Assembly (NCBI GenBank): GCA_964626665.1
Contig: CAZVGK010000005.1
Location: 1-59,968 of the forward strand
DNA: 59,968 nt
Direction of reading: 5' to 3'
From: an uncultured Gemmatimonadota bacterium
Lineage (GTDB): Bacteria > SM23-81 > DAOVCL01
Position 1 is the first letter of the stretch, and every line of letters begins with the position of its first letter. The notes below the pieces were generated by a model, which was given only the letters and a program-made list of their open reading frames with translations, did no database searches and was not told the origin of the DNA. A program made the translations under genes and the position numbers. Below are positions 56,297-59,968 of the stretch, piece by piece.

Positions 56297-57190
56297 CTAC
56301 TGAGCGATCTGATACACAGCTAACTTGGCCTCAGATTGGTCCACTACCCAGAGCTTTTTGTTGGAGGGGGAAACCTTCAGTTTTCCTGGAGGGAAGGGAA
56401 GGGGGAACCTGTCCATAAGTTCTCCTTGAGGGGAGAAGAGGAAGATGGCCTGGGAGGATCGGTCTGCCACCCAAACATTCCCGGCCTCATCTATGGCCAC
56501 CCCCACGGGCACAATAAGGATTCCCTCTCCACTGGTTCCCAGGAGGGTGCCCGCGAAGTCCCAGGTTAAAAGCTTTCCCGTTCCGTCCGTAACCCAGATT
56601 TTTGCCTGGGGATCAACGGCAATGTCCGTGGGCTTCAGGAGGATGCCGCAGGGTGGATAAAAATGTTTAAATTTACCCTCCGAGGAGAGGAGAAATAACC
56701 CATCCTGGTGGGAGTCTATCACGAATATTCTCCCGCTTCTGTCCAAGGCCAGACCACAGGGGAAGCTCAAAGGGGAATCCCCTTCAGAACCCTTTCCTAT
56801 GGAGAAGAGGAATCCTAAATCCCTGTTAAAAACCTGGACCTCTTGGTTGAGGCCATCGAGGAGATAGAACTTTAAATCCTCGCCAAAGGAGAGATCCACC
56901 GGATGAGATAGCTTTCCCTCGGTGTAGGCTTCCTTCTCGGCCAAAAGCGTCCCTGAGGGACTGAACTCCTTTACCCGATTATCGCCGCCATCGGCAACCC
57001 ATAAGTTGCCCCAGGGATCAAAGGTCAACCCCAAAGGCCGTTTTAAACTTTCCCCTCCGATAAAGTGGATGAACTTTAACCTCCCTGGCTCTTTCTGCTT
57101 GGCTGGAGAACCCCATCTTATATTCGTTCCCGCACAGCCGGAGAGGAGAAGGAGACCCCAGAGGCAAAGATTTAAAATTTTGCAAGGCAT
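56297..57190 (-). CDS. NHL-repeat beta-propeller lipoprotein
   Basis: LSGC lipobox; P.GL..D..G.LWVAD repeats. Confidence 0.85.
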   Translation of the reverse strand: MPCKILNLCLWGLLLLSGCAGTNIRWGSPAKQKEPGRLKFIHFIGGESLKRPLGLTFDPWGNLWVADGGDNRVKEFSPSGTLLAEKEAYTEGKLSHPVDLSFGEDLKFYLLDGLNQEVQVFNRDLGFLFSIGKGSEGDSPLSFPCGLALDRSGRIFVIDSHQDGLFLLSSEGKFKHFYPPCGILLKPTDIAVDPQAKIWVTDGTGKLLTWDFAGTLLGTSGEGILIVPVGVAIDEAGNVWVADRSSQAIFLFSPQGELMDRFPLPFPPGKLKVSPSNKKLWVVDQSEAKLAVYQIAQ

Positions 57191-57533
57191 TGTTTATATG
57201 CCGACCGCCGTCGGCAGGATAAAGGAAAATTGAGAATTATGAATGAAGAATTAAGAATTATACTGATTTTGCATTTAAGATTTTTCCTGTATTTCATTCT
57301 TAATTCTACATTCTCCATTTTACATTTCCCCCTGCAAGCGGGAACGTTTCAATTCTTCTTTGTTTTAAGGGATGGTCTTCCCTTACTAAGGGGTTTCCGC
57401 CCCCTAAGTTTAGTCTCTTAGCAATATTCCAAAGAATTAGGCTAAAACAAGAAAATATAAAATATCAGCAGGGTTTCACACATCCAACTTGAGAATTGTA
57501 AAATTAATTAGTTACAAAGCTTTTTGCTGAAAG

Positions 57534-58937
57534 CTATTGGATACTTTCGTGAGCCAGAACTATCAGTTCATAATCCCATTTATCATAATAGATGTTCCCG
57601 TTTTTCCATGCAACTTCTCCTCGCTGGTTGTCTATGTTGTCTGACCTGTAATATTTTTTGGGTGGAGTGAATTCTGATGAAATTTCTGTGTTTGCGATCA
57701 ATCTGAAATGGTCCATGTTTCCGAAGTAGAACTTGTGGTATTTCTCTATTGATCTTCTGTGTCCGCCGAAGGATGGATCTGCGTGAAGCCATCCGTACGG
57801 TTCTATATAAAACTGACTCCAGTCGTGTGGACTCGGTTTAATTGGGTTTAAGTACCATCCTGATTGCCATCTAGCTGGGACTCCGCTGATTCTGCATAGA
57901 GTTATGAAGAGTAATGCTTGAACTCCGCAATCTCCTCTGAGGTTTCGTGCTGCATAATCACTTATGCAGTCTATTGTTGAGTATTCCGGGACGAGTGCGT
58001 ATCTGATATGTTCTGTTATCCACTTGTAGATGAGCCATGCTTTGAGGTATGGATTGGTTTCATCGTTAACTATCTCTTTTGCGAGTTTTCTTAAGTATGG
58101 TGTGAAGACTATGTGAGGTAACTGTTCTGAAGTATATTTTTCACATAATCCTTTTTGGCTGTATTGTCGGTTTACCTTCGCTGGATTAACTTCCTGATAT
58201 GATGCATACACCGTATATTCATATTCAATTCGGAATTCGAGTTCTCTACCTCTTACAGCCTTATCTTCAAAATAGATTGTGCGTTGAAGGCTGTTTTCAG
58301 GGGCTAAAACGTAATTTTCTGGCATTGTGGAGATAAGCTTAACCTCTGGTTGCAACGGGTCTTTGCGTGGAAGGGGCATCCAAACTTTCAAGTTTTCACC
58401 CTCTGGAATTGCATCGGGTTTTATTTTCAGTTTCATTAGAACCCTGTTTCTAACTGGTTCTATGTATCTTTTTGCAGAATCTTTTCCCTTCTTAATAACG
58501 GTGTCAACATGTTTGTTGACAAGTTTTGTGGTTTCCTCGTGTCTCTTATCTTGTTGCCTAAATCTTTTCTTTGCTTCTTTATTATCCCTCAACAGGTTTG
58601 GCAAGAAATTTTTGAAAATTTTCGTTTCTCCTTCTATTTCTCTGTATTCTATAAAGCCATCTTTCATCCATCTTTCAAAATCTTCTTGAGTTATGTCCGG
58701 AATCTGGGTTTTGAGGGATTCAAAAGTTTCTTCCTGATTTAAAGTGTAATCCTTTTTTATCCTTTCAATTCTCTCAGGTTCCCATTCAAGTCTAGATTTC
58801 AGTAGAGTTGGAAATCTCTTGTTTTCGGTTAATATCTTGTTTACTAAATTGATTGCTTCCTTGAGGTATCCTTTCTCCTCTAAAGATCGAACTTTTTCAG
58901 GCAAACCTGCAACCAAAAACTCAAAGTCTAAGCTCAT
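57534..58937 (-). CDS. Transglutaminase-like protein
   Basis: GDCGVQALLFITLCR..GVPARWQSG, HDW..FY..PYGW..ADPS (Cys-His-Asp); start 58937 or 58958; low GC. Confidence 0.9.
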   Translation of the reverse strand: MSLDFEFLVAGLPEKVRSLEEKGYLKEAINLVNKILTENKRFPTLLKSRLEWEPERIERIKKDYTLNQEETFESLKTQIPDITQEDFERWMKDGFIEYREIEGETKIFKNFLPNLLRDNKEAKKRFRQQDKRHEETTKLVNKHVDTVIKKGKDSAKRYIEPVRNRVLMKLKIKPDAIPEGENLKVWMPLPRKDPLQPEVKLISTMPENYVLAPENSLQRTIYFEDKAVRGRELEFRIEYEYTVYASYQEVNPAKVNRQYSQKGLCEKYTSEQLPHIVFTPYLRKLAKEIVNDETNPYLKAWLIYKWITEHIRYALVPEYSTIDCISDYAARNLRGDCGVQALLFITLCRISGVPARWQSGWYLNPIKPSPHDWSQFYIEPYGWLHADPSFGGHRRSIEKYHKFYFGNMDHFRLIANTEISSEFTPPKKYYRSDNIDNQRGEVAWKNGNIYYDKWDYELIVLAHESIQ

Positions 58938-59072
58938 AGTTCTTGTGTGGTGTAACATTTTCCTCCATTGGTAGTTCATTCTCAATTCTACATTTCCCGC
59001 TGCAAGCGGGACAGCTTCAATCCCTGTTTTAGTGGGAAGGAGAATTGAGAATTATGAATGAAGAATTAAGAA

Positions 59073-59423
59073 TTATGTTGATTTTGAAGTTTTCACTATG
59101 GATGTCAAGATGCTTATCAGTTCTTCTGAATCTTTAAGCAGAGAAGTCATCTCCTCTGCAGGTATCAATTCTGTGTCTCTAATGAGTCTCAGCCAGTAAT
59201 TACTTTCCCTTGCCTCCTTCAAAGCGGTGGTCATTTTATAGGTGAAGTCGCTTTTACTAAAGGCGCCAATGGCCTCCTCAACATTTGCTCCAATAGATGT
59301 TCCCGAGTCAAGGAGTTGTCCACCAACTCTATAACCAACCACTCCTTTGGGTAGTTTCAACACAAACTTAATGATCTTCAGAGCAAACTCATATGATTTT
59401 TGTTTGATAATATTTTCCTTCAT
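59073..59423 (-). CDS. Four helix bundle protein (23S rRNA-IVP/bAvd-like family)
   Basis: KSYEFALKII, QLL.SGTSIGANVEEA..A.S..DF..K...ALKEARES.YWLRL. Confidence 0.93.
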   Translation of the reverse strand: MKENIIKQKSYEFALKIIKFVLKLPKGVVGYRVGGQLLDSGTSIGANVEEAIGAFSKSDFTYKMTTALKEARESNYWLRLIRDTELIPAEEMTSLLKDSEELISILTSIVKTSKST

Positions 59424-59482
59424 TGGCAGTTCATTTTTAATTCTACATTCTCAATTCTTAATTTCCCGCTGCAAGCGGGACA

Positions 59483-59855
59483 GCTTCAATCCTTGTTTTA
59501 ATGGATGTTCCTCTCTCACCTGGAAGAGAATTGAGAATTATGAATTGAGAATTATGAATTGAGAATTAAGAATTATGTTGATTGAGTTTGATGGTTTTTC
59601 CTGTAGTTCATTTTTAATTCTACATTCTCAATTCTTAATTTCCCGCGCAGCGGGATAGCTTCAATCCTTGTTTTAATGGATGTTCCTTACTCACCAGAAA
59701 GAGAATTGAGAATTATGAATTGAGAATTAAGAATTATGTTGATTGAGTTTGATGGTTTTTCCTGTAGTTCATTTTTAATTCTACATTCTCAATTCTTAAT
59801 TTCCCGCGCAGCGGGATAGCTTCAATCCTTGTTTTAATGGATGTTCCTTACTCAC
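59483..59855 (-). CRISPR. Three intact 37-nt CRISPR-type repeats with atypical, near-identical 124-138 nt inter-repeat units
   Basis: gcttcaatccttgttttaatggatgttcct(ta/ct)ctcac; minus strand ends ...ACAAGGATTGAAGC; no cas genes in the window. Confidence 0.5.
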
Positions 59856-59968
59856 CAGAAAGAGAATTGAGAATTATGAATTGAGAATTAAGAATTATGT
59901 TGATTGAGTTTGATGGTTTTTCCTGTAGTTCATTTTTAATTCTACATTCTCAATTCTTAATTTCCCGC

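Follow-up and report, generated by a model that had tools for sequence, protein, structure and literature searches.

The locus described here raises the question of what kind of system is formed when the stretches between CRISPR repeats hold genes and hairpins in place of spacers. It lies at the right-hand end of a 59,968-nt stretch of DNA from an uncultured Gemmatimonadota bacterium (the window), where copies of a 37-nt CRISPR-type repeat alternate with hairpin-armed cassettes, one of which encodes a four-helix-bundle protein. An earlier interpretation made from the letters alone (the sequence-only reading) had seen in this an architecture that it could not assign to any described system. The window is the first part of a 120,674-nt scaffold (C5) of the source genome (G000; completeness 99.65%) and ends at a scaffold gap of 100 N, which makes the number of units at the boundary uncertain. 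The analysis leads, with high confidence, to the conclusion that a genuine type I-B CRISPR array, whose trailer or oldest end lies in the window, has been invaded there by four-helix-bundle cassettes of the intervening sequence (IVS) type. The array is a normal one whose old end carries a known type of element.

The repeat goes on past the gap. There are 28 copies between positions 59483 and 62135 of C5, including the three full copies of the window, and they are separated by 22 ordinary spacers of 34-41 nt and by five intervals filled by cassettes. A leader of approximately 174 nt separates the first repeat from cas4, and a near-identical leader is present in a genome of the same genus (G001). 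After the leader, on the minus strand, come cas4, cas2, cas1, cas3, cas5, cas7 (Cst2/DevR), cas8b and cas6b (L001 13118-13969). The locus is a type I-B CRISPR system with a complete cas operon, in which the cas8b1 match is weak. The rightward extension proposed by the sequence-only reading thus found ordinary spacers, a leader and cas genes just beyond the window.

Seventeen of the repeat copies match the Rfam family CRISPR-DR7 (RF01320) with 39.3-47.5 bits, against a gathering score of 37, and all of these matches, those of the three full window repeats included (Table 1), are on the minus strand. In this Rfam search, which did not extend to the 41-nt repeat copy at 57346, the 21-nt copy at 59014 had no DR7 match. 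Similarity to bona fide CRISPR repeats therefore exists, and with cas6b in the operon the earlier proposal that these are Cas6-type repeats in the minus-strand sense is upheld. Because the DR7 matches are all on the minus strand, the array is read from right to left and the window is its trailer end. The leftward decay of the repeats had been likened to that of a trailer, and the leader and cas operon do lie at the opposite, right end.

A CRISPR array is recognised by near-identical direct repeats of 23-47 nt, separated by regular, unique spacers of similar length. Within the window alone no such spacing is seen, since the inter-repeat stretches run from 124 nt to 1.6 kb. The whole locus has the repeats, a curated repeat family, a consistent strand, a leader, and adjacent cas1 and cas2 with effector genes. 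Comparison of all 22 spacers with the genome found only chance matches of 13-17 nt and no self-targeting, and an exact search of IMG/VR with three of the 22 gave no matches to protospacers. At window positions 59481-59855, other sequencing runs have different spacers of 36-40 nt between the same repeats, indicating that the array varies between strains of the sampled populations.

Within the window, the five repeat starts and the start-to-start distances of 175 and 161 nt at the right end, as previously described, were all found again. Tandem Repeats Finder reports 59542-59968 as 2.7 copies of a 161-nt period with 100% matches. The units between the repeats are, as had been proposed, hairpin-armed elements with a gene or non-coding DNA as cargo. 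Heptamer tracts of period 7 are present at 57228-57260, 57295-57326, 59041-59075, 59527-59575, 59702-59736 and 59863-59897, and these pair as inverted arms of 26-35 nt that are 77-88% complementary. Between each arm and the next repeat there is a GC hairpin of 13-15 nt, and those inside the short units are at 59642-59654 and 59803-59815. When folded as minus-strand RNA, four units each form the GC hairpin and a long A/U-rich stem, with z-scores of -7.0, -3.7, -2.7 and -6.1; for each unit, none of 200 shuffles folded as well.

The open reading frame (ORF) of the array cassette, which had been called as a 351-bp four-helix-bundle gene, belongs to the PF05635 / TIGR02436 family of 23S rRNA IVS proteins (1.4e-21) and matches the solved structure 2RLD (1.9e-24). 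There are 16 PF05635 matches in the source genome. The genes are enclosed by inverted arms of tandem heptamers, and the heptamer unit differs from cassette to cassette. In the array cassette, tandem heptamers stand directly upstream of the start codon. Duplex energies of the 120-nt flanks proved uninformative, because random intervals (mean -51.6 kcal/mol) were as low as the cassettes, and they were replaced by local alignment. By this measure 11 of 14 tested PF05635 loci have inverted flanks scoring 17-26, compared with a 99th percentile of 16 for 500 random intervals; of the three below the threshold, one is an intact gene, one a truncated copy and one a fragment. The array cassette scores 26, which was reached by one of the 500 random intervals. 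A relative on a viral contig, with a protein 50% identical, has the same arm design and yet another heptamer. Complementarity of the arms is kept while their sequence is free, a covariation at the level of the family which argues that the stem itself matters.

Elements of this kind have been described from ribosomal RNA. In the Coxiella burnetii 23S rRNA, the IVS carries an S23p ORF, has a 28-bp terminal stem and is excised by RNase III; two or three tandem heptamers precede the start codon, and the passages of that paper considered here argue that the ORF is decaying and untranslated (PMC4990558). The array cassette resembles this IVS, and the Leptospira IVS cited there, in its PF05635 ORF and in terminal inverted repeats that form a long stem. 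It also shares the heptamers of variable copy number just upstream of the start codon, the occurrence of ORF-less or decaying forms and, presumably, the habit of riding in a host transcript. It differs in that its host transcripts would be the pre-CRISPR RNA (pre-crRNA), the cas operon and other operons instead of helix 45 of 23S rRNA; the array copy is in the CRISPR array and other copies are between protein genes. Its ORF is under purifying selection, in contrast to the Coxiella ORF, and its unit has multiplied along with CRISPR repeats. Cutting by RNase III has been demonstrated for the Coxiella IVS (PMC4990558) and is predicted here; the source genome has an RNase III gene (C18 58963-59583, 223.7 bits). 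On these comparisons, the array cassette would work like an IVS, though it is not an rRNA IVS. The Coxiella paper is the only literature found that links heptamers to this ORF. No published account was found of heptamer-armed PF05635 cassettes outside rRNA or in CRISPR arrays, although the supplements of Altae-Tran et al., which were not covered, may list such loci.

Other kinds of element share some of these features. The cassette proteins belong to a fold family homologous to Avd, the accessory protein of diversity-generating retroelements. The cassette between cas2 and cas4 and both cassettes of the more distant genome G013 have weak matches to the Avd model NF033474 (1.9e-10, 5.5e-9 and 1.4e-5), all below its cut-off. 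Unlike Avd retroelements, no reverse-transcriptase family match is present among the ORFs scanned in the locus. Miniature inverted-repeat transposable elements are similarly short, with inverted-repeat arms and ORF-less derivatives of a longer parent. The cassettes are unlike them in having arms that vary in sequence while remaining complementary and heptamer-periodic, and no target duplication was found by inspection at the array copies. Ends of the IS200/IS605 type were considered and rejected, as there is a single GC hairpin per unit and not one at each end. General profile scans of the ORFs in the locus found no integrase family; attC models were not run.

The cassettes are not confined to the array. 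Besides the array cassette, ten loci in the source genome have heptamer arms, each with a heptamer of its own. Among the 11 armed cassettes, nine run in the same direction as the ORFs on either side, from which they are separated by approximately 45-990 nt, one is beside the array and one is in the opposite orientation. Neighbours include a sucC/sucD-like pair, a biotin-carrier gene by methylmalonyl-CoA mutase, a carboxyltransferase, and TrmO by a ROK-family gene. With such co-directional operon neighbours, the cassettes are general inhabitants of the gaps in operons. A 7.6-kb part of the CRISPR-cas locus holds four of the 16 PF05635 matches, compared with about 0.04 expected by size on our own arithmetic. 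For this type of cassette the CRISPR-cas locus is a preferred site, one of several.

Within the cas operon, cassettes are present in the cas1-cas2 and cas2-cas4 gaps. The cas2-cas4 cassette ORF has a synonymous divergence (pS) of 0.255 between the source genome and G002, a second genome of the same genus, against 0.60, 0.65 and 0.49 for the flanking cas4, cas2 and cas1. In G001 this gap is without the ORF and the 3' arm, and a 5' arm of five heptamers is fused to the start of cas4. Among 151 genomes searched, PF05635 genes are found within approximately 500 nt of cas2 in at least 5 of the 23 genomes that have both (3 of 21 genera). '23S rRNA IVP' is listed among the new associations of CRISPR adaptation modules by Altae-Tran et al. 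2023 (PMC10910872). The adjacency of PF05635 genes to cas1 or cas2 in G000, G001, G002, G013 and the unrelated system of G127 agrees with that association, and the portion of their text consulted contains neither an anatomy of arms and heptamers nor array-embedded copies (PMC10910872). A dedicated clade of Cas accessory proteins was also considered and is rejected, since the CRISPR-linked four-helix-bundle proteins are only 16-43% identical between positions. As these proteins are not one clade, repeated colonisation is indicated rather than a dedicated Cas partner. In the apparent cas operon of G001 (C146) there are two further PF05635 matches (L036 2609-2782 and 6391-6687), one with an internal stop, so that species differ in how many cassettes the locus has and where they lie.

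The age of the array insertion can be judged from relatives. A search of 61 genomes found eight with a match, G000 included, and the junction of repeat and cassette is present in both of the same-genus genomes, G001 and G002, and in no others of the 61. A junction pattern applied to genome contigs gave four matches: the two same-genus junctions, and sites in Maribacter and Acetobacteraceae that look like chance. In metagenome contigs it gave 11 loci. Two are on a contig that matches C5, three are informative relatives (L023, L025 and L026), and six are chance-like (L017, L018, L019, L021, L022 and L024). The linkage of the repeat with the four-helix-bundle gene, which the sequence-only reading had suggested looking for, is thus found in G001, G002, L023 and L026 (Table 1). 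The truncation junction of the 59014 repeat is common to G002. In L026 no cas gene or leader is present in the 950 nt upstream. The synonymous divergence between array-cassette ORFs reaches 0.62. A junction common to the same-genus genomes and two metagenome contigs, at this divergence, points to an old insertion that took place before the genus diversified.

How the units came to be several is indicated by their anatomy. In the source genome they share one orientation and the same flanks: the end of a repeat, three variable nucleotides, the GC hairpin, the two arms, a short T/C-rich tail and the next repeat. Cassettes are associated with the repeat variant that ends in ATTGAAGC. At 60535 there is a hybrid repeat that combines an array-type 5' part with a 3' end of the G variant; the one at 60298 is wholly array-type despite the cassette behind it, and one ordinary spacer is tandemly duplicated (60798 and 60873). 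The shared flanks, the linked variant, the hybrid repeat and the duplicated spacer argue for unequal crossing-over and conversion between repeats and not for repeated transposition. Both ends of the ORF-bearing cassette survive in the loops of the short units, and the mid-array and tandem units have kept different bases, which suggests that the ORF was lost more than once. It is concluded with moderate confidence that the units were multiplied by repeat-mediated recombination and that ORFs were lost by deletion. The sequence-only reading had offered as one possibility a mobile element that carries a CRISPR repeat. The genome search for the 37-mer and the hairpin that it recommended gives no support to this, with all 28 repeat matches in C5, all seven matches to the hairpin motif at C5 58994-60532, and no unit of repeat plus cassette elsewhere in the genome. 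The array cassettes show no target duplication or defined ends by inspection, ORF scans of the locus linked no recombinase or transposase to them, and their cargo is the 116-aa PF05635 ORF or non-coding DNA, with no tnsA, tnsB, tnsC or tnsD. At C5 60572-60612 (L001 604-644), a spacer of ordinary length next to the repeat of the mid-array cassette begins on the plus strand with 8 nt, TTTCCCGC, that are shared with the hairpin region of the cassette, either by chance or as a cassette remnant.

Taken together, these observations can be accounted for as follows. A selfish cassette of the 23S rRNA IVS type would have settled right behind an old repeat before the genus diversified. Homologous recombination between CRISPR repeats, and between cassette copies, would then have multiplied the unit of repeat, hairpin and cassette, and one copy would have moved deeper into the array. 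Internal deletions may have removed the ORF from most copies, leaving hairpin units of 124-138 nt, and a foreign AT-rich transglutaminase gene would later have taken the place of an HDAC-family gene. The cassettes would be read through from the leader promoter within the pre-crRNA, their arms could fold into a stem of approximately 25 bp open to cutting by RNase III, as shown for the Coxiella IVS, and the flanking repeats may still be cut by Cas6b. Read-through and cutting by both enzymes are proposed from the IVS precedent, from the presence of rnc and cas6b, and from a scan that found no terminator-like site on the minus strand at 57200-59968. Promoter and terminator scans did not exceed shuffled sequence (promoter-like sites: 10, shuffles 7.2 +/- 3.1; terminator-like sites: 5, shuffles 4.3 +/- 1.8). 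As a whole, this account of an IVS-type cassette that settled in the trailer of a I-B array and was multiplied by recombination is considered probable, if only modestly so.

Several observations sit uneasily with it. The array-cassette protein has dN/dS ratios of 0.05-0.20 in 10 of 10 pairs, so the ORF is under purifying selection and is not merely decaying junk. Pairing is seen in 95% of the cells of the GC hairpin; at one pair, eight of 12 distinct rows have C-G and four have U-A, and the covariation score was reached by none of 500 shuffles, with the caveat that the sequences are related. The hairpin is kept as a structure, which would be unexpected for a chance spacer remnant. The L026 repeat has six differences from the genus repeat in its 5' 20 nt and none in its 3' 17 nt; the cassette-facing part of the repeat is better preserved than neutrality would predict. 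The mid-array copy needs an ectopic conversion event. The cas1-cas2 cassettes of G000 and of G001/G002 are non-orthologous (28-29% identity), the G001 and G002 proteins being 96% identical to each other; the cassette in this gap has been swapped. A cas1-cas2 cassette is also present in the unrelated CRISPR system of G127 (Cas1 27% identical, different repeat). The more distant G013 (Cas1 57% identical) has the order cas1, four-helix-bundle gene, cas2, cas4, leader, partial repeat and an unrelated cassette. The last 25 nt of its partial repeat are identical, and the array-side cassette, which begins 5 nt after the repeat end, has a 28% identical protein, different arms and no GC hairpin. On these comparisons, a second cassette seems to have arrived independently at this place in G013. 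Finally, transcription of the cassettes and cutting by RNase III and Cas6b are themselves inferred.

Some of these points would be expected if the cassettes were targeted to specific sites, inserting preferentially behind the 3' end of the repeat and into the cas1-cas2-cas4 gaps in a manner recalling the Tn7-like preference. Two unrelated cassettes are located 3-5 nt past the same repeat end, in the G000-type genomes and in G013, and different cassettes occupy the cas1-cas2 gap of G000, G001/G002, G013 and G127. The frequency of PF05635 genes near cas2 and the listing by Altae-Tran et al. (PMC10910872) point the same way. So does a second four-helix-bundle element family of the source genome, approximately 510 nt long, with heptamer arms and GTAAC...GTTAC ends, of which there are at least three complete copies. 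It has 8-bp target duplications (TTTAATTC, AATTGAAA and AATTCTGG), of which AATTGAAA resembles the repeat end, and these ends and duplications indicate that this type of cassette can transpose as DNA. Against targeting stand the missing duplications, defined ends and recombinase or transposase at the array cassettes, the likeness of the G000 units to copies of each other and not to separate insertions, and the location of most genome cassettes in unrelated housekeeping operons; it is considered rather unlikely. The conserved hairpin and ORF would instead be explained if the array trailer had been co-opted as a natural RNA-processing signal. A Cas6b cut 8 nt before the 3' end of the terminal or solitary repeat would free an mRNA that begins with the 8-nt handle and a protective GC hairpin and carries the coding sequences of the four-helix-bundle protein and of the next gene (HDAC or transglutaminase). 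In agreement with this, the last 17-21 nt are kept in six of six repeats before an intact four-helix-bundle gene (G000, G001, G002, L023, L026 and G013), save for A/G at position -2. The repeats before far-end ORF-less remnants are degraded, with an insertion at 57346 in G000, three changes in the second repeat of G001 and no repeat left in G002. Cas6b is present, the hairpin has its compensatory pair, the ORF is under purifying selection, no terminator-like site separates the array from the genes, and the solitary repeat of L026 is preceded by a dispersed promoter-like repeat in place of the leader. The other idea of the sequence-only reading, a release of gene-sized RNAs by Cas6 cleavage, gains some indirect support from the conserved 3' half of the repeat and the conserved hairpin. 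This expression platform is still doubtful, and somewhat more so than targeting, because repeats near an array can be kept uniform by gene conversion, the ten other armed cassettes of the genome work without a repeat, and the G013 cassette has no GC hairpin. The two proposals are not mutually exclusive with the main account: an IVS-type cassette multiplied by recombination could also home to repeat ends and to the gaps between cas genes, or have its mRNA processed at the repeat. A joint reading, in which a selected, Cas6b-processed module of repeat and hairpin is combined with cassettes that home to repeat ends and cas1-cas2-cas4 gaps, is unlikely.

Two further explanations can be set against the same evidence. 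The units might be giant spacers, integrated by Cas1-Cas2(-Cas4) at the leader end and shifted down by newer spacers. They do exactly fill the inter-repeat space with no visible spacer remnant, and the single ordinary spacer on the trailer side of the mid-array unit gives an order that fits leader-end acquisition. Integration would not create a single orientation, the same ends and a linked change in the upstream repeat; the hybrid repeat at 60535 points to recombination, and the units, at 124-480 nt, are far outside the 34-41-nt range of spacers in this array, which makes the proposal very improbable. The tandem units could also have been produced by the assembly, from collapsed or mis-joined repeats, since the scaffold gap falls inside them and the Logan contigs of four runs break at every repeat. 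In those contigs pieces are confirmed and units cannot be counted, as none spans the stretch. An ungapped metagenome contig has four short units of 138, 124, 124 and 126 nt with a single-base difference between copies, and contig pieces from independent runs cover 57297-59021 (runs X1 and X11, no differences) and 59047-59457; these show that the structure is not an assembly artefact. In addition, 21 of 23 listed runs contain at least half of the sampled words of 56900-59560, and separately assembled relatives have the same junctions. An artefact, which the sequence-only reading had named as a possible refutation, is accordingly the least credible of the explanations.

The reading of an IVS-type cassette settled in an array has its closest published parallel, for mobile DNA lodging at CRISPR repeats, in the Tn7-like transposons of cyanobacteria, for which CRISPR repeats serve as attachment sites; the same paper also cites a phage that inserts into such repeats (PMC11837452). 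In both cases, as far as the portion of that paper used here describes, the mobile DNA is in an array, has a fixed place relative to the repeats and one orientation, and is often near the last repeats, with the newest spacers spared. The Tn7-like elements carry tnsA-D genes and insert within a spacer, and no tandem multiplication is described for them in that portion (PMC11837452). The cassettes are 124-480 nt long, lack a transposase, fill the whole inter-repeat space and have no target duplication that could be seen.

The 1.4-kb gene at the left of the cassettes has a different history. The ORF at 57534-58985 (minus strand) matches the transglutaminase core PF01841 (2.1e-20), so the earlier gene call stands. 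The full pair of enclosing arms claimed for it does not, as there is a remnant of a 5' arm upstream and only a weak arm-like 17-mer (82% match, 57486-57502) downstream. The gene has a GC content of 38.7%, against 49.6% for the window, and was found only in G000. An HDAC-family gene is present at this position in G001, G002 and L026 and was not found in G000, at the completeness given above. With the cassette 5' arm and four-helix-bundle start remnant upstream, and HDAC in the relatives, the transglutaminase gene is best seen as a replacement and not as cargo captured between arms. The HDAC gene of G002 (C109 546-1462) is broken, having one TGA and one TAG inside it and its match in two pieces; G001 and L026 have an intact copy.

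Table 1. Features of the window and of related loci. Positions are those of the window unless a contig or locus is named; strands are given as (-) for minus. The array ends of relatives are described in the direction from leader to trailer.
Feature	Location	Strand	Remarks
Repeat copies in window	starts 57346, 59014, 59483, 59658, 59819	(-)	minus-strand sense
Terminal ORF-less cassette	57224-57327	(-)	arms 57224-57262 and 57293-57327 (35-nt arms, 77% complementary) around ~30 nt non-coding loop; fold z -3.66
GC hairpin, degenerate variant	57328-57342	(-)
Terminal CRISPR repeat, degenerate	57346-57386	(-)	41 nt, internal insertion, minus-strand end ATTGAAAC
Transglutaminase-like gene	57534-58937	(-)	likely start ATG at 58937; mechanical ORF to 58985
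Cassette 5' arm remnant and first ~15 nt of four-helix-bundle ORF	58938-58995	(-)	fused upstream of transglutaminase gene
GC hairpin	58996-59010	(-)
Truncated CRISPR repeat	59014-59034	(-)	only 3' 21 nt (minus-strand sense) left
3' heptamer arm of four-helix-bundle cassette	59035-59072	(-)
Four-helix-bundle gene	59073-59423	(-)	116 aa, PF05635, closest solved structure 2RLD
5' heptamer arm of four-helix-bundle cassette	59424-59464	(-)
GC hairpin	59465-59479	(-)	3 nt past the 3' end of the repeat
CRISPR repeat	59483-59519	(-)	DR7, 43.5 bits; variant ending ATTGAAGC
ORF-less unit, 138 nt	59520-59657	(-)	hairpin and arms in place of a spacer; fold z -6.12
CRISPR repeat	59658-59694	(-)	DR7, 39.3 bits
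ORF-less cassette unit, 124 nt	59695-59818	(-)	fold z -7.01
CRISPR repeat	59819-59855	(-)	DR7, 39.3 bits
ORF-less cassette unit	59856-59968	(-)	cut off by window end and scaffold gap
PF05635 matches at CRISPR-cas locus	array copy; cas2-cas4 gap; cas1-cas2 gap; further upstream		the one further upstream is broken
cas1-cas2 cassette	G000 L001 3873-4307; G002 L033 1700-2095; G001 L036 355-672
cas2-cas4 cassette ORF	G000 L001 3032-3448; G002 L033 897-1352
Array end in G001			leader, a single repeat, hairpin, cassette and HDAC-family gene, followed by a degenerate second repeat that has a hairpin and an arm remnant
Array end in G002			cassette, truncated repeat and another cassette, then broken HDAC and a remnant of hairpin and arm
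L023 (metagenome contig)			ordinary spacers, last repeat, then cassette
L026 (metagenome contig)			solitary repeat, cassette, HDAC behind dispersed promoter-like repeat
~510-nt GTAAC...GTTAC family sites	C7 75679-76189; C11 (~79,900); C60 end and C59 end; C61 end		C11 copy on minus strand
AAGAATT-type tract examples	C3 25850; C21 50822; C2 167582; C18 45438; C27 24971

The heptamer of the array cassette (AAGAATT and variants) is also found at approximately 90 further places in the genome, inside at least two dispersed repeat families. One of these consists of a palindrome, CGAAGCTTCG, with a heptamer tract and a promoter-like TTGACA...TATGAA box, and the other of a heptamer tract with short repeats of the ACGGAA type. 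At three sites (C4 ~92,000, C25 ~13,400 and C49 ~10,200) an element of approximately 100 nt with inverted ends, TCACCCCGTTAAAT...ATTTAACGGGGTGA, is inserted in the heptamer tract of a dispersed repeat; these insertions are nested small mobile elements. In G002, the terminal ORF-less cassette is split by an insertion of approximately 400 nt with 11-nt inverted ends, AGAGATCACGG...CCGTGATCTCT (L015 1620-2030).

The finding is thus a recurring hitch-hiker in a CRISPR-cas locus and not a new kind of CRISPR system. Its interest is in the recurrent, barely described tie of this class of cassette to CRISPR loci, which links two subjects formerly treated apart, the S23p/four-helix-bundle ORFs of rRNA IVSs and the unexplained statistical association of that protein family with CRISPR adaptation genes. 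The cassettes appear to have entered the CRISPR-cas locus repeatedly and, in the array, CRISPR repeats seem to have served as handles for recombination. This provides a concrete model for how arrays may gain content other than spacers, and a warning for array-finding software that inter-repeat stretches can be non-spacers. It also offers a testable case of host RNases, RNase III and Cas6b, acting on a selfish element in the pre-crRNA. If a function is confirmed for the conserved half of the repeat and for the hairpin, a CRISPR repeat would here be serving naturally as a signal for mRNA processing. Should the selected module and homing both be true, CRISPR loci would be at once a landing pad and an expression platform for widespread, unstudied operon-dwelling cassettes with heptamer-covarying arms.

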